Of a stretch of 64,000 nucleotides of DNA, positions 30,941 through 59,400 are shown in pieces. Origin of the DNA: Polyangiales bacterium (GTDB taxonomy: Bacteria > Myxococcota_A > Polyangia > Polyangiales > Ga0077539); NCBI GenBank assembly GCA_044229975.1, contig JBGARZ010000013.1, positions 204,781 through 268,780 on the forward strand. The letters are read 5' to 3'. A program made the translations under genes and the position numbers. The notes below the pieces were generated by a model. That model saw nothing but the letters and a program-made list of their open reading frames with translations, did no database searches and was not told where the DNA came from. Within the stretch, counting starts at the first letter, position 1; every line of letters begins with the position of its first letter.

Positions 30941-31012
30941 GCGGGCGTAATTCAGCGGTAGAATGTCAGCTTCCCAAGCTGAACGTCGCCGGTTCGATCC
31001 CGGTCGCCCGCT
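30941..31012 (+). tRNA. tRNA-Gly (anticodon CCC)
   Basis: Acceptor stem GCGGGCG/CGCCCGC, anticodon arm TCAGC-TTCCCAA-GCTGA, T-loop GGTTCGATCCC; followed by CCG, so no encoded CCA. Confidence 0.97.
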
Positions 31013-31026
31013 CCGAAGATTCCTCT

Positions 31027-32337
31027 CTACTTTCGGCCCGTTGCGAGCTTAGCTCCAGCGGGCCGATCTTGGTTCTGGGGGTTCTTCACACCCCGCTTCA
31101 CACCCCGACGGCCGTCGGGGCGAGCCATCGCCTCGCGCGCCCCGGCGAGGTCGACCACCTTCGCCAAGCCCGCGCGCTGCTCGGCCTCGGCGGGGCTGCT
31201 GTAGTGCTCCTGCATCGCCTCGGTGTGGTGCCCCGAGATCGACCGCGTGACCACGTTGGTGATCTCGGCGGCGCGCGCCAGGTCCTGGAACGTCCGCCGC
31301 ATCGCGCGCGGCGTGATCTTCTTCCTCAGCCCCAGCGCCTTGTGGACGGCGGCGAAGGGCTTGGCCAGCACCGACGCGGCGCGGAACTTCCCCTGGCGCG
31401 ACGGGAAGAGCAGTTCGCTCTCCTCCATCTTGCCCTCGGGCAGTTCGTCGGCGTGGCGGCGCAGGATGTCGACCAGCTCCTTCGGCACCGCGATGCGCTG
31501 CCGGTTGCCGGTCTTGGTGGTGTTCATCACCTCGTCGGTGCGGGTGTGCGAGCGGCGAACCAGCAGCACCCCCTCGTCCCACAGGACGTCGGCGTTGGGG
31601 CCCTGGCGGCGCAAGGCCCGCAACGACGAGGGCCTGAGCCCCGTCGCGAGGCCCAACACCACCATGGCGAAGTGCTGCGGGTAGAGCTCGTTCATCTTCT
31701 TGAGGAACGCCCGCCCCTCCTCCACGGTGAGCGCGTTGGGCTCCTCGTGGGTGTAGGCCGGGTGCTCCGAGGTGTCGAAGGGCTCGACCCCGGCGATGGG
31801 GTTCCGCTCCAGCTCGAACTCGTGCACCGCGGCGTTGAGGATCGACCGCAGCGCGCTGAACCAACTGTTGGCCGTGTGCGGGCTCAACGTGTCGGCCTTG
31901 ATCCGCTTGGCGACGTCCGCCTTCCAGGCGATCACGTCCGCCCGGCGGATCGCGTCGACCTGGAGCCGGCCGAAGGTCGGGAAGAGGTGCTTCCTCATCA
32001 CCGACGCGAACACCACGCGGCTGTGGGCGCCCTTCATGGTGCCGTCAGCGATCTTTCGTTCCATGAGCGAGACGCTGTAGACGCTGAAGGACGGCAGGGT
32101 CTGCACCTGCGTCCCCTGCCGGAGGCGCTGCTGCTCGTCCTCCAACCACGCCCGCGCTTCGAGGGCCGTGGCCACGTCGAGCGCCTTGAGGATCTGGTGC
32201 TGCTTGCCGGTGCGCGGGTCGGTCACCTTCCCGCGCACGACGAAGCCCAGGCTTTCCTCCCTCTTCCACACGCCGGGCAGCACCGGCTTCGCGCTGATCT
32301 TGAACCGCCATCGAGTCACCCACTTCGTTGCAGTCAT
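31027..32337 (-). CDS. int: Tyrosine recombinase (integrase)
   Basis: TGLRPSS (R), TKT (K), RAMRRT (H-x-x-R variant), SGH and EHY (H, Y); start MTATKW. Confidence 0.92.
   Translation of the reverse strand: MTATKWVTRWRFKISAKPVLPGVWKREESLGFVVRGKVTDPRTGKQHQILKALDVATALEARAWLEDEQQRLRQGTQVQTLPSFSVYSVSLMERKIADGTMKGAHSRVVFASVMRKHLFPTFGRLQVDAIRRADVIAWKADVAKRIKADTLSPHTANSWFSALRSILNAAVHEFELERNPIAGVEPFDTSEHPAYTHEEPNALTVEEGRAFLKKMNELYPQHFAMVVLGLATGLRPSSLRALRRQGPNADVLWDEGVLLVRRSHTRTDEVMNTTKTGNRQRIAVPKELVDILRRHADELPEGKMEESELLFPSRQGKFRAASVLAKPFAAVHKALGLRKKITPRAMRRTFQDLARAAEITNVVTRSISGHHTEAMQEHYSSPAEAEQRAGLAKVVDLAGAREAMARPDGRRGVKRGVKNPQNQDRPAGAKLATGRK
31084..31107. repeat. 12-bp tandem direct repeat, candidate integrase arm-type sites
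   Basis: CTTCACACCCCG twice, about 70 bp from the tRNA 3' end. Confidence 0.6.
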
Positions 32338-32596
32338 CGGCTCGTCCTCCGTCGTCGTTGGAGGGCGCCGCCGTTGGTCCGGCGGGCACCATAGCGTCCG
32401 GCGAGGCGCCGCGCATGAAGGCCAGGACGGCCGATCGCTCGAAGACCATCGTGCCCTTGCCGCCGCGGCGGCCGGCGGGCACGAGGCGCTTCTCCATGAC
32501 GGCCTTGCGGATCGCGCCGGTCGTCTTGTAGCGGCAGATATCCGCTGCCTCGCGGGTTGTGAGCAGCGCGGCGACCGTCTCGATGGGCTCACTCAT
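32045..32596 (-). CDS. HTH_17/excisionase-like DNA-binding protein; the ORF tail overlaps int out of frame
   Basis: LLTTREAADICRY.T..AIRKAV..KRL.PAGRRG...VFERSAVLAFM; lies just upstream of int. Confidence 0.7.
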   Translation of the reverse strand: MSEPIETVAALLTTREAADICRYKTTGAIRKAVMEKRLVPAGRRGGKGTMVFERSAVLAFMRGASPDAMVPAGPTAAPSNDDGGRADDCNEVGDSMAVQDQREAGAARRVEEGGKPGLRRAREGDRPAHRQAAPDPQGARRGHGPRSAGVVGGRAAAPPAGDAGADPAVLQRLQRLAHGTKDR

Positions 32597-33189: not shown

Positions 33190-34812
33190 TCACTCGACCT
33201 TGAACACAGGCAGCCACGCTCCCTGGCCGGCGTCGAACTTGATGCCGTCCGGCTCCAGGTCGAAGAACCGCGCCAAATCCCGCCGTAGACCGTAGACCGG
33301 TGCAGAATCCCTGGGCTCCATCAGCACTCCCTCGCCGAGCAGTTTGGCCAACAGATCCTCCGACGCGACCGAGGTGACCACCGCCTTCAAGCGGAAGACC
33401 TCCCCAGCCCCCTGCGTCTCCGGCGTGCGTCCGCTGGCTGCGTCCTGTCGACCCTCGTCGTGCGGATGCCGAACCGTGACCTCGATCATTTCCTCCCACG
33501 CGCTCCGCTGAAGCCGGACAATCAGGTCTGACCACGTCACCCCTACCGGCGTCCGGAAGCACGGGTCTGGGAGAGAGGTGATCTGAAACCGGAACCGGTA
33601 GGCCCTACCGTTGTTGGCGATGCGCTGGGGCCCCTTCGGCACGCTTAAGATGGGGTCGCACTTCGTGCTCGGGACCGAGGGGAAGAGCCGTCGCAGGCGG
33701 GGGCGGAGCCGGCTCATCGGCTCCCTCGACATCGCTGGCGGTTTCCCCGCCGGACGGCCGCGCCCCCCGCTCGTGCCCTCGGTCGATGGCGATGGCGACG
33801 CAGCGCTCGCGACTTCCACCAGCAGTCTCCACAGTTTCGTGACCTCACCGGAACCCTCGTCCCGTCGGCCGTCAGCGAAGCCCGCCTCCGCGAAGTGCCG
33901 CCAGTGCCGCTCGCCTTGGATCCGGGCGCACAAGTGCTTCTCGCCGACTCGAACATGGATGGCCTCCCACACGGTTCCTTCGGGAGTCGGGATGGGCCGG
34001 ACGCGGCCCCGCGGCTGGGGGGCCGCAATCGCCGGGGTCACCGTGAGCGACGGCGATGGGGTGCCCCCCTCGCGTCTCACGAAGCCCGCCCCTGTCCACT
34101 GGAGCAGGTCGTTAAGCAGCAGCATCTCCGAACTGCGCGCGGTTGCGAGATCCGGCGCCACGGTGCCGAGCACCACCCCGACGACGCGGTCGAACCCCCC
34201 GGCGGCGTGCCCCGCCGTGTTCATGATGCGGTCAGCACCCTCCCAGGCGGGCCCGCGGATCAGAAATACGTCACGGTGCGGCGGCCCCGGCTCGGTGCCG
34301 AGGTGGAACAACCTCCCAGGGTCGAGCTCCCTCACCCGCCCGCGGGTCCCCAGGAGCGTTGCGGTCACCTTCGCCAACACTGGGAGGTCCACCTCCCAGA
34401 GCCGCACGAGGTTCGGCGTGATCTCGCGGGTCTCTCCGTTGCGAGGACAGTGCGCAACCGCGCTCACGATGACGCCATCCGCCCGGTCGAGCACCACTGT
34501 GGCCCAGCACCAATCGCGGTCTGGATCCTCGGCGTACGGCTGGTACACCCCGCCCGGATCCCGTTGCTGCAACAACTGCGTGAGCTGCTTGTCGTACCGT
34601 GGGCGGCACACGGGGCAGTGAATCTTGCCGAGAGGCTCGACTTCGCGAACGACGCGTAGCGCGGCCCAGTGATTGAGGATGTTGAGGCCGACGTGAACTG
34701 CATCCTCGGGCCAGATCCGGGGGTCGTGCTCAGCGGCGCATCGACAGAGTAGGGCGGCGGCGTCGACCATCGGCGTAGAGATCCTCGCGGCGGGGCCGAC
34801 GATCGCTCTCAC
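33190..34812 (-). CDS. Hypothetical protein with a putative N-terminal metal site and a duplicated C-terminal module
   Basis: HCPVC...HCP; modules starting PTPEGTVWEAI and RTPVGVTWSDL. Confidence 0.65.
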   Translation of the reverse strand: MRAIVGPAARISTPMVDAAALLCRCAAEHDPRIWPEDAVHVGLNILNHWAALRVVREVEPLGKIHCPVCRPRYDKQLTQLLQQRDPGGVYQPYAEDPDRDWCWATVVLDRADGVIVSAVAHCPRNGETREITPNLVRLWEVDLPVLAKVTATLLGTRGRVRELDPGRLFHLGTEPGPPHRDVFLIRGPAWEGADRIMNTAGHAAGGFDRVVGVVLGTVAPDLATARSSEMLLLNDLLQWTGAGFVRREGGTPSPSLTVTPAIAAPQPRGRVRPIPTPEGTVWEAIHVRVGEKHLCARIQGERHWRHFAEAGFADGRRDEGSGEVTKLWRLLVEVASAASPSPSTEGTSGGRGRPAGKPPAMSREPMSRLRPRLRRLFPSVPSTKCDPILSVPKGPQRIANNGRAYRFRFQITSLPDPCFRTPVGVTWSDLIVRLQRSAWEEMIEVTVRHPHDEGRQDAASGRTPETQGAGEVFRLKAVVTSVASEDLLAKLLGEGVLMEPRDSAPVYGLRRDLARFFDLEPDGIKFDAGQGAWLPVFKVE

Positions 34813-34982
34813 GGCCAGTGCACGATCGCAACCGCCGTCGCGGGCGACCGGTCCTCCGCGCCGTCGTTACCGGCCCTATGGCGGATGTCGCCGGACCAGA
34901 AACCCTCTGGTATTCCGGGTAAAAGAACATGGAGCGCAACGAGCGGCCCGCTGCCGCCCGCGCTCTAGAAGGAGCCCATCCC

Positions 34983-35117
34983 ATGAAGGACCTCGTCGAG
35001 TTCGTCCGCGCCGCCGTGGCCAACCACGGCCTCACCCTCACCAAGACCGTTCTCCGCTTCGGCGGCAAGACGGTCCGCCTCACGCTCCGCGTCGGCATCA
35101 CCGACGACGCGGGCTGA
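34983..35117 (+). CDS. Small hypothetical protein (44 aa)
   Basis: AAGGAG RBS before MKDLVEF; GC3-rich codons. Confidence 0.5.
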   Translation: MKDLVEFVRAAVANHGLTLTKTVLRFGGKTVRLTLRVGITDDAG

Positions 35118-35241
35118 CCCACCGACCGCCCGTCGCGCTCGGCCCGCCGCCCTACAGAAGTACGCCGTATTCCAGGCGTCTTGGGGGCGTCGTGCGTCCG
35201 CGGGCTCGGGCCCCAACCCATTCACCCAGGAGTCCACAACC

Positions 35242-36399
35242 ATGCTCACGTTGCCCTCTCACGCCTCTCCGTCCGGCGCCTCCTCGCGCTTCGCCGCCGT
35301 CGCCCGCGACAAGCTCGGCGCCCTGATCGAGCGCGGTCGCACCCGCGCCGCCGCCGTGCTCGACCACGTCGAGCGCCACCAGCCCCGCGACCTCCTCGTC
35401 ACCGCCGGGGAGCTCGCCTTCGAGCCCGACGCGGCGCGCCCCGGCGGGATCGTCGTCGTGCCCGACGAGGGCGTGACGATGCCGCTGCACCGCTTCGCGC
35501 TCGGCCAGGCCGCCGCCAAGGTGGGTCTGCCCCACGCCTACCTCGGGCGCCTGCTCGACCCCGAGCACCGGGCCTTCGGGCCCGAGCTGCTCGCCCACAG
35601 CCTGACGCGCCTCTACCGCGAGGGCCGCGCCGTCGCCGACGAGGAGGACGCGGGAGGCACCTTCCTCCTGCGCGCGCTCTCGCTCCCCGACCGCCGCGAG
35701 GTGCGGGGCTTCGTGAGCTCGCGCTTCCGGCGCCTCGACTCGCGCCCCGTCGTGGGGGCCTTCGCCCACGCCTGCCAGCAGATCGGCGCGGTGCCCGTCG
35801 AGGGCTACGCGCTCGACACCAAGATCGCGATCAAGGCCATCCTCGCGAAGGTCTACGAGCCCGTGCCCAACGAGGTGATGGTGTTCGGCATGGCGCTGGA
35901 GAACAGCGACTACGGCAACGGCGCCCTCCAGGTGTCGTTCTACTCGCTCCGGTTGGCCTGCGAGAACGGCCTCTTGATGGAGCGCTCGCTGCGTCGGGTC
36001 CACCTCGGAACCCGCCTCACGGGTGACGTCGCGTGGAGCGCCCGCACGCTCGCGGCGGAGACCGAGGCGACGGCGGGCGCGGTGCACGATCTCGTCACGC
36101 GCCGCCTCAACGACCGCAACATCGCCGTCCTCCAGGACGGCATCCGCCGCGCGAACGACGAGCGAATCGAGCCCGCCCGCGTGCAGGACTTCCTCAAGAA
36201 GCACCTGCTCAAGGGGGAGGCCGAGGCCGTCGTCGCGGCGTTCAACTCGCCCGACGTCGAGAACATGCCCGCCGGGCAGACCCGCTGGCGCCTCGCGCAG
36301 GCGGTGAGCTGGATCGCGGGCAAGACCGAGGACGAGGAGCGCCGTCTCGACCTCATGCGCGTCGCGGGCAACCTCGTGCCGATGCCGGAGGCGGCGTGA
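35242..36399 (+). CDS. DUF932-like protein
   Basis: VRGFVSSRFRRLD, LENSDYGNGALQV...RLACENGL, RRVHLG, TRWRLAQAVS; AGGAG RBS. Confidence 0.75.
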   Translation: MLTLPSHASPSGASSRFAAVARDKLGALIERGRTRAAAVLDHVERHQPRDLLVTAGELAFEPDAARPGGIVVVPDEGVTMPLHRFALGQAAAKVGLPHAYLGRLLDPEHRAFGPELLAHSLTRLYREGRAVADEEDAGGTFLLRALSLPDRREVRGFVSSRFRRLDSRPVVGAFAHACQQIGAVPVEGYALDTKIAIKAILAKVYEPVPNEVMVFGMALENSDYGNGALQVSFYSLRLACENGLLMERSLRRVHLGTRLTGDVAWSARTLAAETEATAGAVHDLVTRRLNDRNIAVLQDGIRRANDERIEPARVQDFLKKHLLKGEAEAVVAAFNSPDVENMPAGQTRWRLAQAVSWIAGKTEDEERRLDLMRVAGNLVPMPEAA

Positions 36400-36776
36400 T
36401 GAAGTACGCCGGACTCCTGCGGATCAAGGGCCTCCTCGACGGGTACTTGGCCGCACTCGCCGATGAGGGTCGGCAGGCCATGCAGGACGCGCTCGGGGAG
36501 TTCCTGGGCGAACACCCCGAGGTGCTGGCGATCGCCTGGTACCAGGGCGCGGGACTGAGCCACCTCACGTTCGAGTTGCGCGGCGGCGTGCGCTACCTCG
36601 CCGCCGAGGATCAGATCGTCGGCGCCGCAATGGACGACACCTTCGACACGTCGGCCTACGCGGCCTTCGCCGACGTCCTCTGGAACGCGCTCGACGTGCT
36701 CGTGGCGAAGTTCGGCTTCGACGTGAACCTGCGCGCGACCCGCGAGGACATCACGGCGCTGCCGATCGCCGCGTAG
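36399..36776 (+). CDS. Hypothetical protein, translationally coupled (TGATG overlap)
   Basis: Start overlaps the DUF932 stop; GC3-rich codons. Confidence 0.7.
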   Translation: MKYAGLLRIKGLLDGYLAALADEGRQAMQDALGEFLGEHPEVLAIAWYQGAGLSHLTFELRGGVRYLAAEDQIVGAAMDDTFDTSAYAAFADVLWNALDVLVAKFGFDVNLRATREDITALPIAA

Positions 36777-36796
36777 GCGCCCACCTCCCAGCCCGA

Positions 36797-36922
36797 CGTG
36801 CGGCGCCCGGTGCCCTCGCTCTCGGAGCGGGCGCCGGGCGCCGCACGCCCCTCCCGCACCTGCCCTCGGAGCGACGACGAAGCCCCCGCGGTGACCCCCG
36901 GTGTGCTTCGTCGTCGCTCCGA
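36797..36922. other. Two adjacent long stem-loops
   Basis: 36797-36810 pairs with 36834-36847 (14 bp perfect, extendable inward); 36866-36883 pairs with 36905-36922 (18 bp perfect). Confidence 0.85.
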
Positions 36923-36966
36923 CCTTCCCGCTCGCCAGCGCCCCTTCCACCAAAGGAACCCTCACG

Positions 36967-38067
36967 ATGAACCTCGACACCCGACTCGCGCCCGAGCGCG
37001 AGCAGTCCGCTCCGGCGCCCGACGACGGCGCGCCGAGTCGCCTCTCCGTGGCGCCCGTCGACCCCTTCGCAGCGGTCGGCCTCGTCGGCACGTCACGACC
37101 CATGCAGCGCGTGCGAGCCGACGTTCTGCGGTACGCCCGCTCGTCCGCGCCGGTGCTAGTCACGGGCGAGACCGGGACCGGCAAGGAGCTGGTCGCCCGC
37201 GCCCTCCACCTCGCGTCGCCGCGGGCCCGCGGGCCGCTCGTGACCGTCAACGTCGCGACCCTGCGGACCGAACTCGTCGCCTCGGAACTGTTCGGCCACG
37301 AGCGCGGCGCGTTCACCGGCGCCCTCACCCGGCGCCGGGGCGTCTTCGAGCAGGCCCACGGCGGCACGCTCTTCCTCGACGAGCTGGGCGAGCTCGACGC
37401 CCGCACCCAGGCCGACCTGCTGCGCGCGCTGGAGACCGGCGAGGTGCGTCCGCTGGGCTGCGAGCGCCCGCGCGCCGTCGACGTCCGCATCATCGCCGCC
37501 ACCCACCGGGACCTCGGCGCGATGGTCACGGCGGGGTGCTTCCGCGCCGACCTCTACTACCGGCTGAACGTGCTGACCGTGGGGCTGCCCGCCCTGCGGG
37601 AGCGCCGCGCGGACCTCCCCGCGCTGGTCGAGCACCTCCTCGGTCGGCTCCGCCCCGAGGTCGGCGACCGTCGCCTCACCAGCGATGCGCTCGCCCTCCT
37701 CGTCCGCCACCCGTTCCCGGGCAACATCCGCCAGCTCTTCAACGTGCTGCGCCGTGCCCTGGTGCGCGACGAAGGTCTCGTCCTCGACGCCGCGGCCGTG
37801 GCCGACGCGTTGGCCGACGAGCCCGGCACGCCGGTCCCCTACCAGACGCCCGCCCGAGACCTCTCGGTCCCCGCCGTCGCCGAGGCCATGCAGGCGAGCG
37901 GCGGCTCCATCTCGGCCGCCGCGCGGCGCCTCGGCATCGCGCGGTCGACGCTGCGCGAGCGGCTGAACGCGAGCCGCCGCAGCGACGTCACGCAGATCCA
38001 AGGCGGCGGGCTTCCGCCCGTGGCGTGGGTCGCGGGCGCCGCCGCGCGCCCTACGGGGGACCCGTGA
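36967..38067 (+). CDS. Sigma54 activator (AAA+ plus Fis HTH) without an N-terminal sensor domain
   Basis: [47 protein letters not shown]; only about 35 aa before the AAA+ domain. Confidence 0.9.
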
Positions 38068-38411
38068 GCACCGCGCCCCCGCGGGCGTGGTCGCTCGGCC
38101 ACAAGCTCGGCACGATCGAGCAGGCCGTCGAGGGCTCCGCCTCGGTGCTCGCGCGCATCCAGGACGCGCAGGGCGACCTGCACGCCATGCAAGCGTGGGC
38201 GTCGCAGGCGGAGGGCATGCTCGCGCTCGCGCACCGCCGTCTCCACGATCTCGGCCGGGTGTTGCGCGGCGAGCTCGCCCCAGCGCTTCTCGCGGCACCC
38301 CACAACGTCGTCGCCCCCGGCGCCGAGCCCCTGAACTCCGGCGAGGACGTCCTGTTCCCCGCACGGCTCGACGTCCGCGCGAGCCGCTCCGCGCGACCGC
38401 CCCATCGCTGA
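38064..38411 (+). CDS. Hypothetical helical protein (GTGA overlap)
   Basis: Start overlaps the activator stop; GC3-rich codons. Confidence 0.6.
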
Positions 38412-38522
38412 CCAACCGCCTCGCTCGCTGCCCCGCCGCCGACCCGACTTCGGGGCGATGCCGGGTGCGCGGGCGCTCTCTCTTCCCCCAACGCTCACCC
38501 CAACCATCGTCACGAGGAACCC

Positions 38523-39641
38523 ATGAACGCAGCACTCGCCATCGTCACCACCCTGACCACGTCTCTCTGCGCGTCGCTCGACCGCCGCGCCCTCGCCCTC
38601 GCCCTCACGCGCCTCAAGCACGTCGTCGACCGCCGCGCCTCGCTGCCCGCGCTGGAGGCGGTGCTCCTCGCGGGCACCGGCGACGCCCTCCACCTCACCG
38701 CCACGGACGGCAGCGTCTTCGTGCGGGTCGTTGTGCCCGCGACGGTGACCTCGTCCTGGGCGTCGCTCCTGGTGCCCCTGCACCGCATCCTGGCGGTCGC
38801 CAAGGGGCCCGCCGGCCTGCTCCAGCTCGCCGGGGACCAGATCACCGCCAGGGGCGCCACGCACCGCCTCTCGGCCCTCCCCACGACGACCTTCCCGGCG
38901 GTGCCGCCGCCGGGCGGAGCGGTGCTCTTCACCCTCATGCGTCCGACGCTGGCGCGGGTGCTCCGGCAGGCCAGCTACGCGATGAGCTGCGACGACACCC
39001 GGCCGCACCTGGCGTCGATGCTCATCGAGCGTCGCCGCGGGGAGCTGCTGTTCGTGGCGACCGACGGCCACCGGCTCGCGCGGGTGAGCGTGCCCGACGA
39101 CGGCGCCGAGTTCGCGGTGCTCGTCGGGCGCCGCACGGTCGAGTCCGTCGAGCGCATGCTGGCGGTGGACGGCGGGCTCGTCCGCCTCCGGCGCGAGAGC
39201 GACCGCGTGTGGTTCACCTCGGGCGACGAATGGGTCTCCGGGCCCGTCGTCGACGCGGTGTTCCCCAGCTACGAGCAGGTCATCCCGGCGCGCGCGGGAG
39301 GGAACCTCACGATGACCACGACGGAACTCGCCGCCGCGATCCGCGCGGTGGCAGCGAAGGGGACGCCGACCGTGCGGCTGCGGCTCGACGGCGCCGCGTC
39401 GTCGGTCACGCTCTCCGTCGACGACGGCGAGGGCAACGCCGCCGAGGCGGCCGTCGCCGCGACCTTCGAGGGCGCCGTACCCGAGGCCATCGGCATCAAC
39501 GGGCAGTACCTGCGGGAGATGGTCACGGCCCTCGCGGACGAGGGCGCGACGGTCACGATGCAGGTGACCGGCGAGCTCGACCCCGTGCGGGTGGACGGCA
39601 CGCACGGCACGACGGCTGTGGCGATGCCGCTACGGGTGTAG
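38523..39641 (+). CDS. dnaN: DNA polymerase III beta sliding clamp homologue (element-encoded)
   Basis: RASLPALEAVLL, LTATD, YAMSCDDTRPHL, VATDGHRLA, FPSYEQVIP, IGINGQYL, C-terminal MPLRV. Confidence 0.9.
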   Translation: MNAALAIVTTLTTSLCASLDRRALALALTRLKHVVDRRASLPALEAVLLAGTGDALHLTATDGSVFVRVVVPATVTSSWASLLVPLHRILAVAKGPAGLLQLAGDQITARGATHRLSALPTTTFPAVPPPGGAVLFTLMRPTLARVLRQASYAMSCDDTRPHLASMLIERRRGELLFVATDGHRLARVSVPDDGAEFAVLVGRRTVESVERMLAVDGGLVRLRRESDRVWFTSGDEWVSGPVVDAVFPSYEQVIPARAGGNLTMTTTELAAAIRAVAAKGTPTVRLRLDGAASSVTLSVDDGEGNAAEAAVAATFEGAVPEAIGINGQYLREMVTALADEGATVTMQVTGELDPVRVDGTHGTTAVAMPLRV

Positions 39642-39758: not shown

Positions 39759-40115
39759 TCAGGTCCGAGCGACCGAAAGAAGCACGCGCACGAGCTTCTC
39801 CGCCGCGTCCTGGACCTCGTCAGGCTGTGACGCCAACTGCGCGACGATGCGCTGCACCGGCGGCTTGAACCGCGCCGGCGGCAGGGCCTCGGTCCGAACC
39901 AGATCGCCCACCTCGACGCCGAGCGCCGCGGCCAGATTGGCCAGCGTGGCGATCGTCGGCACGCGCGTACCGTTCTCGATGCGGTTCACGGCGTCCAGGC
40001 TCACGCCCGCGCTCTCGCAGAGTTGCTCCTGGGTGAGCCCCCGGGACGCGCGGAGCTCGCGCAGTCGGGCGCGCACGACCTCCTCGATCGTCTGACGGCG
40101 GACTCGACGCGGCAT
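39759..40115 (-). CDS. XRE/Cro-CI family HTH regulator
   Basis: RLRELRASRGLTQEQL...SLDAVNRIENGTRVPTIATLANLAAALGV. Confidence 0.92.
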   Translation of the reverse strand: MPRRVRRQTIEEVVRARLRELRASRGLTQEQLCESAGVSLDAVNRIENGTRVPTIATLANLAAALGVEVGDLVRTEALPPARFKPPVQRIVAQLASQPDEVQDAAEKLVRVLLSVART

Positions 40116-40176
40116 GCAGTGGGCATGGCGTGGAGCACAGCCTCGCGACAGTGACAGGAGCACATGAACGAGTTAT

Positions 40177-46090: not shown

Positions 46091-48326
46091 AGACGCCTCC
46101 CCTCCACCGGTGGACCATCACTCCGTGACCGGAGTCTTCACCAACAACAACCACTGGAACACAGCCTCCACCCCACGCGCGTAGGCCTCGTCGGACACGT
46201 CCTCCGGCAGCCCCCCCAGCGCCCGCTTCACGCGCGCCCGCACCTTGTCCCGGAGTTGCTGGTGGAGCTTCCAGTCGAGGGACATCACCTTCGCGACCTC
46301 GCCCGGCAGCGCCTTCGCCACAGCGGTGAGCGCCTCCTTGGGCGCGTCGCCCACGGCCCGCGCGAGGACGTCGCGGAACGCCAACTCATGCTCCGAGAGG
46401 CCCTCGCGCTCGGCGCGCGTCGACTCCGTCTTCAGCGTGCCGAGCAGCTTCACCAACTCCGCGAAGAAGGCCTCGGCGTTGTCGATGCCCTCGTTGTACC
46501 GCGCCACCAGCGCCTCGAAGCGCGCCTGGAGCTCGTCCCGCGTCGGGTTCGCCTGGAGGAGGTTGTTGAGCGCCCGCCGCACGACGGTCTGGAGGCTCAT
46601 CGCGCTGGCGTTGGGCGTCTTCTGCTGCTGCGCGATCGCGTTCGCCAGGCCGTCCACGTCCAGGCGGCGCAGGTCGAGCGGCGCGCGTTCGTAACCCGGC
46701 GACCAGCCCTCGGTCACGCGGTGGACGACCACCGACTCGGCCAACATCGCCCGCACGCGGTCGACGTACTCGCTCACGTCGGGGCGGTCGATGGTGGCCC
46801 GGATGTAGCCCGCCACGTCTGTCAGGAACCCGTGCCGGAGCGCGAAGGGCTTCACCACGTCGTCGAGCACCATCGCCGAGAAGATCCGGTCGACGAGGTT
46901 CACCTGGGCCAGGAAGTTCCGCCGCCGATCGTCCGGGTGGATCAGCGCCTCCTTGGCTGCGTTGCGCAGCGCGAGCCGGTCGGCGAGCGAGACGTTCGGC
47001 GGCTCGCGTGGGTCGACGCCCGCGTCGCGCACCATGGTCTCGGCCGCGTCGATGGACCGCGCGAGCGCCGCGATCAGCGCCTTACGGGGTTGCACCGGGG
47101 TCGCGCCCGCCGGGGCGCCGGGCCGGTTGGCGTAGATCGACAGCGCGCTCCGCAGGTCATGGAACACCCCCGCGTAGTCGACGATCATCCCGCACGCCTT
47201 GCCCGCGTCGACGCGGTTGGCGCGCGCGATGGTCTGCATGAGCGTGTGGTTGCGCATCGGCTTGTCGAGGTAGATGACGTCGCAGCTCGGCACGTCGAAG
47301 CCCGTCATCCACATGCCGCAGACGAACACGATCCGCAGCGGGTGTTTCGGGTCCTTGAAGCAGGCGTCCAGGGCCGGCGGCTCGTTGATCCGCTTGCGGA
47401 TGGGCACGATGTCCAGGGGGAAGCCCTGGAGGTTCGTGGTCGTGACCTTGTGGTTCTTGAAGTCGTCGACCTCGCCCTGCGACTCCGAGATCACCGGCGC
47501 CATCTCGGTCGCGCGCATCCAGGCGATGAGCTCGGCCAGGTCGTCCCGGCGCGTGGACCCCTCGGGCAGCGCCGCGTGCTCGGCCTCCAGCGCCACGAGC
47601 CGGGCGTCCCAGTGGCGCTTCACTCGCACCGACATTTCGACGGCGGTGAAGCGGTCGATCGAGACCACCATCGCCTTGCCGCGCGAGGTGCGCGACGTGT
47701 AGTGCTCGACCAGATCGCGGGCGACCTCGTCGAGCCGCGCGTCGTCCGTGATGAGGCTGTAGAGCTTCGCAAGCTCGCGCCGCAGCACCCGCGCCTCGTC
47801 GGGGTCGAGCGTCGCAGCCTCCAGCATCTTGTAGACGCGCTCGCCCAGCTCGGCGTCGGCGAGCTCGATGCGGGGCAGGCGGTTCTCGTAGTAGAGCGGA
47901 ACCGTGGCCTCGTCGGCGATCGCCTCCTCGAAGGGGTAGATCGAGAGGTAGTCGCCGAACTTGACCTTCGTCTCCCCGTCGGCGGACTTCGACGGCCCGT
48001 GAGCCCTGTCCACGTCGACCAGCGGCGTGCCCGTGAAGGCGAGGTAGCGCGCGTTGGGGAGGGCGTCGCGCATGTTGCTCGCGAAGGTGTCGTACTGCGA
48101 GCGGTGCGCCTCATCGGCCATCACGACCACGTCGTCGCGGGTCGAGAGCGTGGGGTAGGTGGTGCCCTTCACCTCGGTCGAGAACTTCTGGATGAGCGTA
48201 AACACGTAGCGCTGGTCACCTCGGAGCAGCTCGCGCAGGTGGTCGCGCCCCTGGGCCTGCACGAGCACCTTACGCCCCTGCTTCGCGTCGGGCGCCCGCA
48301 CGGCCCCGGCCGACACGAAAGTCTTA

Positions 48327-49661
48327 GGGCGTCGCAGTTTTCTCGTCGGGGTGCTGGTGCGTTCAGTGCGCTCCGTCGCCCCGCACGGCCTTCGGCGCGC
48401 AGAGGATCTCCACGAACCACGCTTCCAAGCCCGCGAGACGCTGGACCTGCGCCTCGACTTTCGCCATCGCCGCACGCGTGAGCGAGATCCCCTTGGCGTA
48501 CGTCGTGGTGACCAGTTGCACGACGGGCGCGACCCCTTTCCAGGTCATGGTCTGAGCGAAGTTCACGACCGTCTCCACGGTGTCCAAGATGCTCCCATTC
48601 CAGTGCTGTTCGAGGACGCCCCAGCAGCGCTCCACGGGGTTGTACTTGCTGTGGTACGGCGGGTAGTAGGCGAGGCGTACGTTGATCCGATGGGCCTGCG
48701 CAAAGGCCACGATCCGCGACAGAAACTGTGTGCGACGGCTCTGGTTTTCGGGCCCGTTGTCCTGAAGCAAAAGGAGCGTATCGACCTCCGGAAAGCGCGC
48801 CCGGTGAGCGCACCACCACGCCTCGATCCGATCGACGATGAAGTCCGCCGTGACGGGCCCCGTCGCCAGAGACACCGTCAGCTCGTTGTGGGCTGTGAGC
48901 AGGATGCCGTACGGCGTCACCTTCGCCTCGGCCCCGTGGTCGTGATCGAGCGCAAACACCAGCACGCGACTGACGCCGTACCGAGAGAACTCCCCCACCT
49001 TGATGACGGCCTTGGCGTCCATCGACAGTTCCAGCACGTTGGGCGAACGCGCGGCCGTCGCCCGCTCACGACTCATCTGTTCGAAGATGGCGTCCGTCGC
49101 GGCGACCTTTTTTTCGGCTTGGTCTTGGCCACGGCGCGCAGCCCATATCCCAGGTCGTTGAGCTTGACGCGGATCGTCTCCTCACACGGCAACTCCTCGT
49201 CCGTGTACCCCTTCTGCGCGATGAGTTGCCGACGGACTTCGGCCGACGTGATGCGTGTGTAGAGCCGCTGCGTTTGAAAGCGCGGATCGGTCTGACTCTG
49301 ACCATCGACGAGGTCGCGCAGATCCCGCATCAGGTTCGGCAGTCGCGATTGCGCCGTCGGACGTCCGCCGCCGGAGCGACCGTCGAGGCACTCGATCCCG
49401 GAGCGCAGCTCGTTCTTGCCTTTGCGCAACGTCCGCTCGTCCCAGTCGAGCGCGCGAACGGCTCGGTTCATCACGCCGTCGAACAGGTCGCGCACCGTCC
49501 GCGCCATGAACCGCCGACGTTCGCTGCCCTTCAAGGCGGCGGCCGTCTCCTTCAACACCTTCGTCACGTTGGTCGCGAGTTGCATGCCCGACTGCCTGGG
49601 AGCTCTGGCGAGCGCTGGACACCCTACGCCCGTTCAGCCCGAGCACTTTGCTGCGGCGCCC
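48327..49661 (-). mobile_element. ISAzo13-family insertion sequence, 1335 bp
   Basis: Terminal inverted repeats GGGCG(T/C)CGCAG; TTA duplicated at 48324-48326 and 49662-49664. Confidence 0.92.
48363..49585 (-). CDS. ISAzo13-family DDE transposase in two ORFs joined by a -1 frameshift
   Basis: SQTDPRF, SMDAKA, DNGPEN, YYPPYHSKYNPVERCW; A7 run at 49108-49114 gives KPKK-VAATDAIF after -1 slip. Confidence 0.9.
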
Positions 49662-50709
49662 TTATAGATCTGGTCGTCGAGGTCGTCGCGATCGGTGATC
49701 ACCACGAAGGTCCAGTTGCCCGGCACCTTCCGCAGCGCCTTCTGCGAGAAGAACACCATCGAGTAGCTCTTGCCCGAGCCCTGCGTGTGCCAGAAGACGC
49801 CGAGGGGCGTACCCTTGGACGGCGCCCCCACTCGGCGCGACGGGGCTTGGGTCTTCGATCGGCGTAGCGCCTCGACGGCGTTGTTCACGCCGAGGAACTG
49901 GTGGTTCTGCGCGACGATCTTCGCGAGGCCGCCGGGCACCTCCACGAAGAGCGTGAAGTTCTCGATCAGGTCGAGCATCCGCGCCGGGTCGCAGACGGCG
50001 CGCAGGAGGGTCGCCTGCCCGGGTGCCGGTGGCTCATCCTCGCGGGCGACGCGCTTCCAGGGCTTGAAGTGCTCCCAGCCGCTGGTGAGCGTTCCCAGGC
50101 GCGCATCGCTCCCCTGCGCGAACATCACGAGCGCGTTGAAGAGGAAGAGGCGCGGGATGGTCACGCGGTAGTCGGTGAAGTTCTCGTCGAAGGCCGCGCG
50201 CAGCGGGACGTCGGGAGACTTGAGCTCTACGAAGAGCAGCGGCAGACCGTTGACGAAGCCCACGAGGTCCGCCCGGCGGGTGTACACGTCGCCCCGCAGC
50301 TCGAACTCGCGCACGGCCACGTAGCTGTTGCGCGCAGGCGTGTCCCAGTCGATCACGCGCACCCGCACCGTTTCGGTGCCGCTGTCGTCGGTCTTCACCT
50401 CCACCGGCACGCCGTCGCGCAGGAGCGCGTAGAGTTCCTGGTTGGCGCGTTCGAGCGAGAGTGCGCTGCGGTCGCGCAGGAGCTCGTTGAGCGCGGCCTC
50501 ACGCGCCCCTGCGGGGACCGTGGGGTTCAGCACCTCGACCGCCTCGCGCAGTCGTCGCGGGAGCACGTGCTCGGTGTTGCTGCCCCGGCCGTAGGTCGAC
50601 ACCGCCCCACCGAAGGTCTCCTTGAAGCCGTTGTCGACGGTCCAGTGGAGCGCTTCGAGCTGCCCTTGGAAGACTGTGGCGACCGCCTGCTCCTTAAGGT
50701 TCGCGGAGG

Positions 50710-51945
50710 TCATGCGAGTTCCTTCTTGCGACGCCCGTGACGCGGCGAGTTGGCGGATGGCAAGTCGGGTGGTGTGTCGTCAACGGCCTCAGGGGGCGGC
50801 AGCGGCAACCGCGAGACGTCAACCTCGCCCGATAGCAACTTGGGAAGGAGAAACCCGCGTAGCTTTCGGAGGGTCGCATTGCGAGTCCCAAGGGACTGCA
50901 ATAGGGCGATGCAGGGTTCCAAGATCTCGTTGAGTGCGAGACGCTCGCTCTCGGTGCCGAGCGGAACTGCATACGTTGCCATGTCTTCCCACCGCGCACG
51001 CGGCATCTTCGACCCATTCGCTTTATTGCTGATTTCGGCAACGAAGTCATCGCTCGACGCGCACATCAACACGGCCAAGCGATCTAGCGCGCTGCGCGCG
51101 CGCATTACAATCGCGTCCGCAGAGGTTACGCCATCGAAAGCTACCGGGCCGACTTTGTGAAAGTAGGGCCGGATCTTCCCAAACAGGAGATCGCCAGCTT
51201 CGAACGGAATCTTCGAACTCACCACGTCCCGCGTGTATCCATGATCGGAGAGGTCGAACGATCGCCGGGGAATGTGTTCCAACCCGATATAGCGCGTATC
51301 GCTGTCGATTTCGGCAGGACTGACCTGCATCCGCACAAGATGCACGAGATCACCCAAAGGAGCCGTGACACGTCTTGCGTCGCGGGCCCATCGCGACCAA
51401 TAGAGACGTGCCACATCTTCAGACATATGAACGCGGCGAAGATTGTTCTCAATGAGGCGCGAGATCCCATCGAGGAAGCCTGCGACGCGCCGCTGTGTTG
51501 GGAGATCTGGCACTCTGAGCGGAACCCGACGGAGTTCGCTCTGTTTGATGCCAGCCACCGTTGTGCCGGTAGCGCGTTTGCGTAGTTCGCCCTGAACCTG
51601 CGGACCCTGGAGCAGGTGATAGAGATATGAGGGATCGATTACGGAGGACTTCGCTCGAAGCAGGATCACGCGTTGGGCAAGCGCCACCCTCGGATCGTCG
51701 ACGCGAGCTACCTGTCCCAGTGGCGCTTCGGTCGTGATGAGAACGTCTCGTTCGCGCGGAAGTCCACGACGCATCCACGTGTCGTAGTCATCTTCTGCAA
51801 TGTACTCATTTTCCGCCTGAAGAACGAAGCCGTCTTTGATGACTTTGGCTGTCACGAGCAGCACGCCGGCATTCGACTTCTCGGGCGTCTTGCCTCGATA
51901 GTCAATCAGCACTTCAACAGCCTCTTCGAGTTCAACCGTCCGCAT
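50710..51945 (-). CDS. hsdS: Type I R-M specificity subunit S
   Basis: DYRGKTP, VPDLPTQRRVA..L, GDLLFGKIRPYF, LRKLRGFLLPKLLSGEV; two-TRD layout. Confidence 0.93.
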   Translation of the reverse strand: MRTVELEEAVEVLIDYRGKTPEKSNAGVLLVTAKVIKDGFVLQAENEYIAEDDYDTWMRRGLPRERDVLITTEAPLGQVARVDDPRVALAQRVILLRAKSSVIDPSYLYHLLQGPQVQGELRKRATGTTVAGIKQSELRRVPLRVPDLPTQRRVAGFLDGISRLIENNLRRVHMSEDVARLYWSRWARDARRVTAPLGDLVHLVRMQVSPAEIDSDTRYIGLEHIPRRSFDLSDHGYTRDVVSSKIPFEAGDLLFGKIRPYFHKVGPVAFDGVTSADAIVMRARSALDRLAVLMCASSDDFVAEISNKANGSKMPRARWEDMATYAVPLGTESERLALNEILEPCIALLQSLGTRNATLRKLRGFLLPKLLSGEVDVSRLPLPPPEAVDDTPPDLPSANSPRHGRRKKELA

Positions 51946-53491
51946 GAGTCGGCTCCAGAAGAAGACGCATCGCCTCACTCACGGTCGCTTCCTGTACATG
52001 AGCCTCCGCCGTAAGGGTCTCGAACTCCTCTTGCAACTCCATCAACCGTTCCTCGAAGTCGACCTCGTCGGCGTCGGTCTTCGCGCCTACGCCCACGTAG
52101 CGGCCAGGATTGAGGCTCCAGCGGTTCTCCTCAATGACCTTGCGCGAGACCTTCTTGCAGAGTCCTTCCACGTCGCTGTACGCCGTGCCTATACGCTCCC
52201 TTGTCAACGCCAACCCGCCATGCCGGTTCTCGACCCCCTTACCTCTCCACAACCTCACAATGTTCGCCAGAAACTCCACTTGCGCGGGGGTAATGTTTCG
52301 ATGCGCTCGGTCCACCTGTTCGAAGACCTCACGGGCGTCAATGAATAGCACTTCGTCGGCGCGTGGCCCCTTTGCTTTTGCCCGATCGAAGAACCATAGC
52401 GTTACCGGCAGCGTGACCGTATAAAAGAGGTTGGTCGAGAGCGAGACGATCACGTCCACGGCGCCGCTCTTCACGAGATCGCGACGCACTTCGAGGTCGC
52501 GACCACCCGCGTCGCTGGCGCTGTTGGCCATGACAAAGCCTGCGCGACCGCCTGGGTTGAGGGCACTATAGAAGCGCTGGATCCACAGGTAGTTGGCCTT
52601 ATCGCCCGATGTCATGCCCCAGGGGTAGTGGACGCGGTCGTCCTTCAAGCGCGCCTTATCGACGCCCTTGAGGTTGAAGGGCGGGTTTGACATCACGAAG
52701 TCGAAGCCCTCCTTCACGTCCTTCTCAACCGGGAACTCGTAGAGCGAGGAGACTACCTGGCGGATGGACCCCTGAAGCCCGTGAATGGCGAGGTTCATTC
52801 GGCAGAGCTGGATGGTCTGGGCCATCTTCTCCTGGCCGAACACGCTGAGCCCCTTGCCCTTGTGTTCAGCCACGAAGCGCGCGCTCTGCACAAACATCCC
52901 GCCTGAGCCGCACGCGGGGTCGAAGATGCGCCCCTCAAAGGGTTCGAGGATCTCGACGATGAGCCGCACCACTGAGAACGGTGTGAAGTACTCGCCGCCC
53001 TTCTCCAGGGTGTTCGGCGCGAGGGCGCCCAGGAAGTACTCGTAGACCCGGCCGTAGACGTCCCCCTCGGGCGACTCTTCGAGCACGTTGAAAGCCTTGA
53101 GCAGGTCGCGCAGGATCTTCTTGTCGATCTTCGCGTAGTCCTTCGGGAGCACGCCCTTGAGGGCGTCGTTGTCTTCCTCGATGGCGCGCATCGCGTCGTT
53201 GAGGACCTTCCCCAGCTCGGCGCCGTCGGGGAGGTCCAGGAGCGCGCCCCAACGGTGCTCGGGGCGGAGGTACACGGCCCCTTCGGCGCGGTAGTCCTCG
53301 GGCTCGGGGGCGCCACGCCGACGACCCGCCTTGAGCTTCGCGTGGGCCTTCGCGAACCCCTCGTCGGCGTACTTCAAGAACAACAGCGCGAGCACCGGGA
53401 GCTGGTACTCCGTCGGCTTGAGCGCGGTGCCGGCCCATAGGGCGTTGGCGGCCTTCCAGAGCGTCGACTCGAAATCCTTGGGCAGGGGCAT
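51932..53491 (-). CDS. hsdM: Type I R-M methyltransferase subunit M (m6A)
   Basis: LWKAANAL, GEYFTP, FDPACGSGG, NPPF, SLNPGRYVG. Confidence 0.96.
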   Translation of the reverse strand: MPLPKDFESTLWKAANALWAGTALKPTEYQLPVLALLFLKYADEGFAKAHAKLKAGRRRGAPEPEDYRAEGAVYLRPEHRWGALLDLPDGAELGKVLNDAMRAIEEDNDALKGVLPKDYAKIDKKILRDLLKAFNVLEESPEGDVYGRVYEYFLGALAPNTLEKGGEYFTPFSVVRLIVEILEPFEGRIFDPACGSGGMFVQSARFVAEHKGKGLSVFGQEKMAQTIQLCRMNLAIHGLQGSIRQVVSSLYEFPVEKDVKEGFDFVMSNPPFNLKGVDKARLKDDRVHYPWGMTSGDKANYLWIQRFYSALNPGGRAGFVMANSASDAGGRDLEVRRDLVKSGAVDVIVSLSTNLFYTVTLPVTLWFFDRAKAKGPRADEVLFIDAREVFEQVDRAHRNITPAQVEFLANIVRLWRGKGVENRHGGLALTRERIGTAYSDVEGLCKKVSRKVIEENRWSLNPGRYVGVGAKTDADEVDFEERLMELQEEFETLTAEAHVQEATVSEAMRLLLEPTHADG

Positions 53492-56282: not shown

Positions 56283-56491
56283 CGTCCCCTCCATCCCGTG
56301 CTCCTGCGCGATCGAGCCGGCCTGCGGCGTGCCGAGGATCGCCGCGCGATCATCGACCCGTCAACGACCATCGACGCGAGCGGACCGGGCCCAGCGCACC
56401 CTTCGCCGGTCGGCACCGATCGCTGAGCCACCCGGAGACGATCCCTCTCGATCCTTCCAATTTCCGATCGCTAAGGCCGATACTTTGCGCG

Positions 56492-59400
56492 ATGACATCC
56501 GACCAGGACCTGAAGTTGCGCGGAAAGCATCCGGGCCCGGATGAGGTGCGCGCGGCCGTCACCGGAATACTTGCGGCCGTCGCCGCCACGCGAGAGCTCG
56601 ACCAGGCGAACGAGGCGACGACGAGAGTCGGGTTGGTCGACAAGCTGCTGGACGCGATGGGTTGGCCCTTTGGCGAAATCAAGCGCGAGCAACCGTCTGG
56701 AACGGGCCTTTTCCTGGACTACGAGTTGCGGGTCCGCGGAGAGCCTTGGATGGTCGTTGAGGCGAAGCGTACCGAGAGAACCTTTCGCTTGGCGCGCCCC
56801 ACCGCATCGGGGCGCGCGACGCCGCTGAGAAGCCTCCAGAGCCTCCTCACCTCCGGCGGGCAACCCCTACGCGAGGTTTTGAATCAAGCCGCCGGATACT
56901 GCAACGATCGTGGCATCCCCCTCGCGGCGGTGACAAACGGCACGCAGTGGGTGTTCTTCAGGGGCCTATCCGCCCGACATCGCCAGTGGATGGACGGCGT
57001 TGCGATCGCGTTCGACCGCGCCGATTTAGTCGAGGCATCCGGTGAGTTCTTCGGGTGCCTTTCCAGAAGCTGCGCTGGAACTCCCTATCTCCCCGACCTC
57101 CTCGACCGGGTCACGCATGTGGACCCACCTGCCGCGCATGTTCCCCGCGACCACATCGAACTCCGACGACCGACGATCGACCCCCACACCGCCGCCGTCC
57201 TCGGCTCCGTCTGCGACTACCTGCTCGCCGACATCTACGGGTCCAACCGTCAAGCGATGCTGAAGCAGTGCTACATCGAGCCGGGCGTCAAGGGGGAGTT
57301 CGAGCGCAGCATCGAGCGCCTCCTGCGAGACACCGCCAATCCGATCACGCTGCTCGATAGCCAAAGGGACGATGGCCCCAAGCGAGCGGCCGACGATCGA
57401 AAGGGCGAGGAATCGAATCTGCTCGACGGCGACAGTCGCGACTTTGTCGAGCACGTCACCCTCCTCGACCGAACGACCGAGATTCAAAACCCCGTCGTCG
57501 TCGTCGGTCACGTCGGAGCCGGCAAGACCACCTTCCTGCATCGCTCGCTATCTCACTTCGAGCCGAACAAGGGGGCCAAAGGCAACAACGAGGCCTTCTA
57601 CGCTCTCGTCGACTTGGAGGGCCACGGCGAGGGAGGCGCCGTGGAGGCCAATCAGGAGGAGCAAAAGGTCGCGGAGGACATTCTGCGAGGGCTAAAGTAC
57701 TCCGCGCAGGAGGCCGTGCGCAGCCGTAAGGCAGGCCGCTCCGACGCTGGTGAGACCAACCTCGAACGGCTTCTCGAACGCACCGACCCCTACTCCCTCG
57801 CGACACTCCAAAGCCTCTTCGGCGGGCGTCTGAAGAACGATAGGAAACTGGGGGAGAAGGTGTGGGCGAAGGACCCCGGCGCGTGGGATCGCAAGGAGTA
57901 CGAGATCCTTTCTGAGGCCAAGAAGGATGCTGTCGATCTGCTTGTGCGCTTCGTCAAGCACCTCCGGGAGCACTTCCACCGCGCCGACAAACGAAGGTAC
58001 CCCGTCCTGATCGTACTGGACAACCTGGACCAGGCGACGGACGACTACCAACGCTGTATCTACGGGCTGGCGCGCCAGTTGGCGCGTCGAACCCACGCCA
58101 TCATCGTCGTGTGTCTTCGCGAGGACACGTACAATTCGGGGTTGGGACCCAACGGCTTTCTTGCCTCAAGCAACCTCCAGTTCGTGTTTCACGTGAAGGC
58201 GCCTCCGCTCGACCATGTCGTTCGGCAGCGGGCGAAATTCGGGAAGCAAGCCGTCGAGTCGGGCAAGCTCCCCACGGCCCTCGCGGTCGAGTCCGACGCA
58301 TTGATCGGCGTGTGTGACCTTCTCGGGGACGTGTTCTTGACGCCCAAATCGGAAGCGATCGAGTTGGCGTCATCCGTTTCTGGTCACAACATCCGCGAAG
58401 CCCTCGGGATCGTTCGATCGGTGGTCGCCGGCCGCCCCTCCATCGCCGGTGAGGCCAAGAGCAGTGCCGCATTCGCGCTCGATTGCATTCTCGCCACGCG
58501 CAGCCAAGAGTCCGTCCGGAATCTGCTGGGCCCCGGCAACTGCCTGGACGCGGACCCATGGAACCCTCCATGTCACGCCCTGCGTGTCCGGATGCTGGCA
58601 TACCTATCGTGGTCCTTCGAATCGAACAACGATCGCGTTCTGCACGAGATGACGGACCTGATTCTGGCGCGCTTCTCGTCGTGGGGATACCCGCTCGGGC
58701 TTGTGAAAATGGCCGTGGCCTCTCTGCTCGCGGCCCGGTTGATCCGTCCCCGCACCAAGGCGGATTTCTCCCCACTCCGAGCCCCCTACACGTTGCCTCA
58801 GGGGCTGTCACTCACCGCATCGGGCAGGGTGCACCTCACCCGGCTCGTGAACCTCCCCGTGTACCGGGCGGCCACCGCCCTGAGGGTCAGGTGGTACGAC
58901 AAGGAATTCTTTACGGAGTTCGTGCGTGCCGCCCAGGCCGCTGGCGGGGATGAGGGTCCCAGTGTCGCGGACATCGCCGCGTCGAAGGCCCTCGACATCT
59001 TTGACTCCTACCTTGCCGTCGCGGTCGGACGCGAGGACGGGTACCTAGGTTTGAGCGCAGCCAAGCCGCAGTGGCTTTCGGAAGTGATATCCCGATCGGC
59101 GCAGGTGCTGCCATCCACGGATCTTCTGCAAGCGAAGGCCACGATCGTTCCCCCTCCCCGCCCCTCACGCCGTGCGAAGTCCAAAGACGTCGACAAGCAA
59201 CTCCCGCTCTTCGAGGAGACTGGACAGCCCCCGTCGTCATTAGGGAAGCTCCTGGCAGACGCCTCCTTTGGAGGCGACCCCTGGGTCGTCAGGGTCTTGT
59301 GGGCGCTTGAGTGGGGACGAGAGCGCGGCACACCGGCCATGTTGGAATCTGACATCTGGCGAACGCTCAACGAGCACACTTCGCTGCGATTCGAGCAGGC

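Follow-up and report, generated by a model that had tools for sequence, protein, structure and literature searches.

Mobile elements usually use the sliding clamp of their host, and enhancer-binding proteins as a rule are linked to a sensor and to a promoter close by. Here we describe a six-gene operon at positions 34983-39641 of a 64,000-nucleotide stretch of Polyangiales bacterium DNA (GenBank assembly GCA_044229975.1, contig JBGARZ010000013.1, positions 204,781 to 268,780; hereafter the window), in which a DUF932 gene, a sensor-less sigma-54 activator and an element-specific beta sliding clamp (DnaN) stand together on an integrating island. Each part has precedent and the combination is apparently undescribed; from its sequence we read it as a conserved backbone operon and infer its function.

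DUF932 genes of phages, plasmids and cryptic islands share with the present gene its fold and a place in a mobile-element backbone near recombination and replication genes, and YafZ, YfjQ and YubP are presumably DUF932-type genes of such backbone operons. The neighbors in those settings are anti-restriction or RadC genes, and here a sigma-54 activator and a clamp. Group IV enhancer-binding proteins include PspF and HrpR/HrpS, and are subject to trans-acting inhibitors of the PspA/HrpV type. The activator of the window resembles these in having an AAA+ domain with GAFTGA loop, a helix-turn-helix (HTH) and no sensor, and its small coupled neighbor could regulate it in trans. It differs in belonging to a clade of its own and in its pairing with DUF932; no divergent -24/-12 promoter and no homology to PspA or HrpV were detected.

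Phage-inducible chromosomal islands (PICI) and P4-type satellites are laid out as integrase, excisionase and primase-helicase, and typical phage satellites are smaller than ~41 kb. Primase-polymerase integrative elements (the kind treated in PMC11724360) and the PICI/P4-like satellites resemble the present islands in integration at tRNA or transfer-messenger RNA (tmRNA) genes, in the integrase, excisionase and primase-helicase, and in defence cargo; the islands differ in size (~41 kb for the window's), in PolA taking the place of the primase-D5 protein in three of them, and in that no packaging genes were recognised. Plasmid leading-region and establishment operons (the kind treated in PMC11541004 and PMC8708921) have co-oriented genes, strong ribosome sites, a conserved promoter and plausibly early expression, but the present island class has no oriT or relaxase, and its hairpin lies downstream of the -10 block. 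Phages also encode beta clamps (phrog_947); Cluster O mycobacteriophages have one among other DNA-handling genes, for Ku, an AAA-type ATPase and a ParB-like protein (PMC4351075), and so offer another second DnaN on a mobile element. In contrast to the phage clamps, the clamp of the window lies on a capsid-less island, shares a DDTRPHL motif with the DnaN of the host lineage and has deletions in its interface.

The initial annotation, made from the letters of the window alone, did not recognise the combination as a described system. Our literature searches agree: no description of DUF932 with a sigma-54 activator and a clamp was found among the matches listed, which cover main text in mostly open journals. 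Supplementary gene tables of the leading-region papers may list DUF932.

Operon organization and conservation

Coordinates are positions in the window unless a contig prefix (e.g., G000:C15) is given. G000 denotes the window's genome, g1 its genus and g5 a second genus; 31 genomes of one uncultured, myxobacterium-like family were compared, which are kin, and locus counts among them are not independent events. The operon consists of six open reading frames (ORFs; lengths in amino acids, aa):

34983-35117, plus strand: leader ORF without family, 44 aa (relatives: 40-46 aa); present in 7/7 cassettes and in G029:C86
35242-36399, plus strand: DUF932/TIGR03299-fold protein, 385 aa, from profile, predicted-structure and ESM Atlas matches
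36399-36776, plus strand: conserved 125-aa protein, no family; coupled to the DUF932 gene, homolog in 7/7 cassettes
36967-38067, plus strand: sensor-less sigma-54 activator, 366 aa; AAA+ domain with GAFTGA, Fis-type HTH, element-specific clade
38064-38411, plus strand: 115-aa protein without family, its gene coupled to that of the activator in g1
38523-39641, plus strand: element-specific beta sliding clamp (DnaN), 372 aa; peptide pocket conserved, dimer interface remodelled

GC content at third codon positions is 0.91-0.97 in all six. The stop and start codons of the DUF932 and 125-aa genes overlap as TGATG (36397-36401), and those of the activator and 115-aa genes as GTGA (38064-38067). A clear Shine-Dalgarno sequence precedes the four uncoupled genes; that of the two coupled genes is G-rich and lies inside the upstream gene. 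The six co-oriented genes, strong ribosome sites and two overlaps are thus as first annotated, and the labels given to the DUF932-like, activator and DnaN genes are borne out by profile and structure matches. The 44-, 125- and 115-aa proteins have no match in Pfam, PHROGs or NCBIfam. In g1 the 115-aa gene is lost together with the activator; two g5 islands have its homolog on the opposite strand, at a distance of 6-7 kb.

Ratios of nonsynonymous to synonymous substitution (dN/dS; NG86, within genera, a measure biased in a 71% GC genome) were 0.14-0.42 for the DUF932 and 125-aa genes, 0.29-0.39 for the activator and 0.38-0.53 for the clamp. By this measure the three named genes and the 125-aa gene are under purifying selection.

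Recurrence in the family

The cassette recurs in six further islands of the same family, seven in all (G000, G002, G004, G007, G012 and two in G027), and is thus no chance arrangement. The window's DUF932 protein was found at 88-90% identity in three of eight congeners. G004 carries all six genes in order, with the same tRNA, an unrelated integrase and PolA, and G002 also carries all six, with tRNA-Phe and PolA; in G007 the leader, DUF932 gene, 125-aa gene and clamp are followed by a gene for a PD-(D/E)XK nuclease. The g5 islands (G012 and the two of G027) were reached via the clamp. Their order is leader, DUF932, a 111-aa gene, activator, 125-aa homolog and clamp, and their DUF932 proteins form a distant subfamily (profile probability 98%). 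Integrases of the six compared islands are at most 50% identical, and the islands occupy tRNA-Gly (two), tRNA-Phe, tmRNA and probably tRNA-Leu. Replicases vary as well, being Prim-Pol/D5 or, in three islands, PolA. The replicase of the G027:C5 island is a 1560-aa fusion of a DUF3854 primase-like region, a 3'-5' exonuclease and PolA (L321:6934-11616).

A search with the g5 subfamily gave 26 DUF932 matches in 11 of the 31 genomes. From 29 loci tabulated in the family, three fragments were dropped, and 26 full-length loci were counted. At 19/26 the strand of DUF932 also carries an activator, no more than 2.2 kb from it, and three of the seven activator-less loci stop at contig edges. The clamp is present at seven of the 26. 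At nine, a Replic_Relax relaxase and/or a TrwB-like coupling protein lies upstream of the pair and the clamp is absent. The clamp clade has six full matches in the 31 genomes (E<1e-170) and a contig-cut copy in G002, all inside the cassette. Contigs in X1 and X5 hold relatives with the same gene order. The initial annotation would have been refuted had the three named genes not been found together elsewhere; clamp and activator do accompany DUF932 at 6/26 loci, from five genomes and two genera, but the fixed unit is smaller than these three genes and the clamp is an add-on. We conclude that the more stable unit is the activator with DUF932, which rides on two kinds of mobile element, and that the clamp, leader and 125-aa gene belong to one island class.

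The second class of element (L368-L376 and L380, from G025, G027, G020, G005, G029, G004, G011 and G016) is laid out as HTH, Replic_Relax, TrwB-like coupling protein, sensor-less activator and DUF932, with several copies per genome. DnaA-box-like 9-mers with at most one mismatch occur 5' of the activator in six of ten stretches of 128-588 bp in this relaxase class (L368:15456, L369:12914, L370:4436, L373:1009, L376:5048 and L382:3632; background 0.062 per kb), and the activator-DUF932 pair may there be tied to the replication state of the host. At L368:11939-14182 one activator is followed by a tandem pair of DUF932 paralogs, which share 82% and 35% identity with copies from g5 cassettes.

The sample from outside the family comprised 216 DUF932 loci, along with 80 loci of viral clamps and 79 of viral activators. 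None of the 216 has an activator, and one has a clamp, 8 kb away. DUF932 was found at none of the 80 viral clamp loci and none of the 79 viral activator loci, and PF06067 was absent among 36 neighbors of sensor-less viral activators. With four candidates scored per genome, neither 370 genomes of the order, all from outside the family, nor 396 of the class yielded a member of the clamp clade, and two DUF932-bearing genomes outside the family have no activator within 1.5 kb of the gene. The link between DUF932, activator and clamp is lineage-restricted.

The sliding clamp

The clamp matches TIGR00663 at 144 bits (cut-off 137.65) as well as PF00712, PF02767 and PF02768, the third under its cut-off. 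Its model (pLDDT 89.7) has the full three-domain fold and superposes on E. coli beta with a TM-score of 0.83. The clamp family comprises 46 clusters. At positions that we take to correspond to the peptide pocket of E. coli beta, R160, G182, H183 and P248 are invariant in 38/38 aligned members, and L163, R184, V253, M368 and P369 are kept in 37/38. The interface carries the near-invariant substitutes H114, E91 and E308 and a hydrophobic residue at 276. The host has a DnaN of its own on contig C23, within an apparent dnaA-dnaN-recF-gyrB block of the usual kind. The island clamp shares 29% identity with it and is a second, element-specific copy, as the term private clamp in the initial annotation implied. 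The 80 viral clamps are only 21-33% identical to it.

The sigma-54 activator

The activator consists of PF00158, an AAA_lid and HTH_8 (residues 303-334), with 38 residues ahead of the AAA+ domain and no N-terminal sensor; its match to TIGR02974 (PspF-type) is below the cut-off. Walker A and B, the GAFTGA loop, the arginine finger and sensor II are all present in the window's protein and nearly invariant across 16 element activators, among which two have GAFTSA and one GSFTGA. A phylogenetic tree (FastTree) of these 16 with 58 host activators places all 16 in one clade apart from the host proteins (support 0.986). The HTH recognition helix is near-invariant, and element activators therefore likely bind one conserved DNA site. 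Near the operon, no -24/-12 promoter was found at 11 of 13 consensus positions.

Short sensor-less activators are also encoded on viral contigs L425, L458, L460, L463, L464 and L472, with near-consensus -24/-12 sites close to them; PD-(D/E)XK nuclease genes follow in L463 and L472.

The DUF932 protein

Assignment to DUF932 draws on several searches: PF06067 scores 22.8 bits against a 23-bit cut-off, phrog_1362 matches at E 3e-31, structure matches include BFVD entries named DUF932 (E to 4e-15, TM-score 0.62), and the ESM Atlas feature score is 0.98 to a cluster with PF06067 on 18% of its members. No PDB structure matched DUF932 in a Foldseek search at E<=0.001. Relatives number 2950 clusters at E<=0.001. 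In seven of the eight top rows of the structure comparison, residues 48-161 align to oligonucleotide-binding (OB) folds of RPA70-C or Teb1 (Z 5.5-6.0); the OB-fold matches include RPA70-C, Teb1, Stn1 and CTC1, the best with Z 6.0 and a root-mean-square deviation of 3.8 over 89 residues, all below Z 8, a level commonly reached by unrelated folds. The predicted N-terminal domain weakly resembles OB folds that bind single-stranded DNA (ssDNA). At 165 dereplicated loci elsewhere, the most frequent neighbors of DUF932 are Gp157 (14), helicase (13), ParB (12) and RuvC-like (10) genes, and others include RecA, PolA and ligase. DUF932 variants were selected after phage treatment, according to a preprint (10.1101/2025.06.20.660599).

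A second DUF932 gene, of the g5 subfamily, lies at G000:C26:148322-149389 in the window's genome without activator or clamp; two long ORFs stand upstream of it and a ParB-like ORF on its other side.

Promoter and leader

Two elements precede the leader ORF:

34897-34929, plus strand: promoter-like motif, AA, 14 variable bases and CGGGTA-N-RAG; invariant blocks at fixed spacing in seven islands
34930-34967, plus strand: hairpin predicted in the 5' leader, its end immediately ahead of the ribosome-binding site

The motif lies 60-68 bp 5' of the leader ORF in all seven clamp cassettes. Its exact pattern, which was derived from these seven sites, matches nothing else in the 31 family genomes; a one-mismatch match precedes another leader-DUF932 pair. 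The hairpin has the same fold in 7/7 leaders (z -0.5 to -2.7), with matching 2-nt deletions on both arms in three of the seven and no two-sided pair changes; its placement is unlike that in ssDNA promoters.

Autoregulation of the operon by sigma-54 was rejected, the motif having no GG-N10-GC and persisting in the activator-less G007. A host regulon for the motif was rejected likewise, as G000 has no second site for the full matrix and no enrichment in spacing was seen with loose patterns. The host encodes one sigma-54 (one PF04552 match) and 54 sigma-70-family factors, and since only three of the latter have region 3, a SigB/FliA-type reader is unlikely. The motif is likely read by an alternative sigma factor; because it is not of the -24/-12 type and region 3 is so rare, one of the extracytoplasmic function (ECF) type appears likeliest.

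The island carrying the operon

The operon lies beside an integration module:

30941-31014, plus strand: tRNA-Gly(CCC), the integration site (tRNA call)
30971-31017, plus strand: 47-bp attachment repeat, the last 47 bp of the tRNA-Gly copy; second copy at G000:C15:206579-206625
31027-32337, minus strand: tyrosine integrase (PF00589, phrog_1)
32045-32596, minus strand: excisionase-like HTH_17 ORF (E 1.8e-4, under cut-off)

A D5-type primase-helicase stands at the far end of the island. The attachment repeat, integrase, excisionase and primase-helicase around the operon uphold its initial description as part of a mobile element. The ends of contigs C10 and C15 run into opposite ends of one multi-copy insertion sequence (IS) with a matching 8-bp target duplication, so the contigs would join through the IS, giving an island of ~41 kb. 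No relaxase, coupling protein or type IV secretion system was found by Pfam among the island ORFs scanned, and the family's own relaxase and coupling protein, used as tblastn queries, had no match across stretches from six islands, among which only that of G000 was covered end to end (apart from the IS). The early-transferred position that the initial annotation cites for DUF932 genes thus finds no support on this island. Among 54 proteins scanned, several from ORFs without family, none had a PHROG match to virion, packaging or capsid-redirection genes. The layout is of the satellite type, with integrase, excisionase and primase-helicase and no recognised capsid module.

Function of the operon

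We propose tentatively, at somewhat short of an even chance, that this backbone operon acts on excision or entry of the island through a DUF932 protein on ssDNA, a private clamp and the activator. The genes, the island, the recurrence of the cassette, the common promoter motif and the intact motifs of catalysis and of the pocket are observed, and the action of the operon is inferred from them. The operon belongs to integrating islands with their own primase-helicase or DNA polymerase and would be on at excision or arrival, its six genes forming one transcript from a non-sigma-54 promoter, probably of an ECF sigma. DUF932 is predicted to bind ssDNA. The clamp would form a self-specific ring that does not mix with the host clamp and is loaded by the host clamp loader, and it might support island copying by host Pol III, repair enzymes or element polymerases. 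The activator, likely always on, would fire sigma-54 promoters outside the cassette, in the host or in a partner element. We find doubtful a more ambitious version, in which an orthogonal, self-pairing clamp is combined with an unregulated activator that reprograms the host sigma-54 network (and is shared with the relaxase elements) and with an OB-fold, ssDNA-binding DUF932. The initial annotation had suggested an establishment module engaging both sigma-54 and replication. A mobile operon with an element clamp agrees with this; the operon's own promoter, which is not of the sigma-54 type, and the lack of a sigma-54 target in the stretches scanned do not.

Several observations weigh against the proposal. 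Across the element stretches scanned there is no conserved intergenic -24/-12 site at 10 of 13 positions, leaving the activator without an identified target. No clamp loader was seen among annotated island genes, and the element replicases have no clear clamp-binding motif, QLxLF-like motifs occurring instead in cargo proteins. Relative to host DnaN, the clamp lacks five residues in domain I and three in the interface helix of domain III; with deletions on both dimer faces, a monomer also fits. The G007 island has no activator though it keeps the clamp, two of the six G002 genes are frameshifted, and for the leader ORF dN/dS is uninformative, with no constraint measurable in g1. The g5 DUF932 proteins are 26-29% identical to that of the window; such divergence in the same slot, together with the missing activator at all 216 loci outside the family, implies no specific protein partnership. 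The modest OB-fold scores and the bias of dN/dS noted above count on the same side.

The deletions on both dimer faces, taken with the conserved peptide pocket, also suit an explanation in which a monomeric clamp soaks up the host's loader and clamp-binding proteins while the activator titrates sigma-54 holoenzyme from the ~58 host activators, so that the module would damp host replication, repair or defence during island establishment. It is consistent with this that a slightly better-scoring E. coli entry, 1jqj, has AA for IL in the interface helix (a mutant clamp that we take to be monomeric) and that neither an element client nor a sigma-54 target was found. A decoy would scarcely need, however, the activator's complete ATPase motifs and near-invariant recognition helix; the 38 aligned members retain all three domains of the clamp, and the hydrophobic residue still at 276, with the new near-invariant residues H114, E91 and E308, looks like a co-evolved interface. 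We consider this explanation unlikely. It is distinctly unlikely that the genes are independent backbone genes behind one good promoter, co-occurring by descent with no joint mechanism. Each gene does have its own ribosome site, the activator has moved or been lost, DUF932 has been swapped for a distant subfamily, a PD-(D/E)XK nuclease follows the clamp in G007, all loci come from one family of kin, and the link is absent from the DUF932, viral clamp and viral activator loci sampled elsewhere. Yet the adjacency of activator and DUF932 survives reversal of order and change of element class, the clamp clade was found only inside the cassette, and the genes appear to be under purifying selection.

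The layout of integrase, excisionase and primase-helicase, with no transfer or capsid genes, could instead mark a phage satellite or defence island whose operon works during infection by a helper or invader, for example with a clamp that evades a clamp inhibitor of the phage and with an activator that sets off the phage's sigma-54 promoters at the wrong time. Near-consensus -24/-12 sites lie near eight of 20 viral loci with a sensor-less activator, the cargo is defence-like (type I restriction-modification, DISARM-like DrmD/DrmMI, DUF499/SNF2), and the selection of DUF932 variants after phage treatment, reported in the preprint (10.1101/2025.06.20.660599), points the same way. Against it, neither a helper phage nor a gene for packaging or interference was identified, ~41 kb is above typical satellite size, the PADLOC match to the operon is to generic domains of bacterial enhancer-binding proteins only, and the same activator-DUF932 pair occurs on relaxase-bearing elements. 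This explanation seems quite improbable.

If the proposed action at island excision or entry is right, a self-specific clamp with an unregulated activator would give an island a new means of establishing itself in a host that has ~60 activators, and ssDNA binding by an OB fold would be the first function for the widespread DUF932 family. A clamp with a rebuilt interface is in addition a natural case for the question of oligomeric state. The weight of these points is limited by the narrow range, one family, and by a function read from sequence.

Neighboring genes and island cargo

Two genes flank the operon:

33190-34812, minus strand: 540-aa ORF without family, in divergent orientation to the operon; no counterpart found in the other islands
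39759-40163, minus strand: XRE/HTH_3 regulator in convergent orientation to the operon; the G027:C5 island has a homolog with 76% identity

A type I restriction-modification system occupies 46118-53491, its HsdR split by an ISAzo13-like transposase (48363-49585) of an IS that is present in identical copies at other sites of the genome. Adjoining it at 53496-56294 is a UvrD helicase fused to a PD-(D/E)XK nuclease, likely defence cargo. The genome has only three sigmas with region 3, and one of them is an island-borne sigma-70 factor with regions 2, 3 and 4 (60563-61627), not seen in the other islands. A STAND-type ATPase (56255-59530) has a clamp-binding-like QLPLF motif near its C-terminus, and QLPLF or QLALF is present in DrmD-like helicases of the islands of G012 and G027:C5; by these motifs, the ATPase and the helicases are possible clients of the island clamp.

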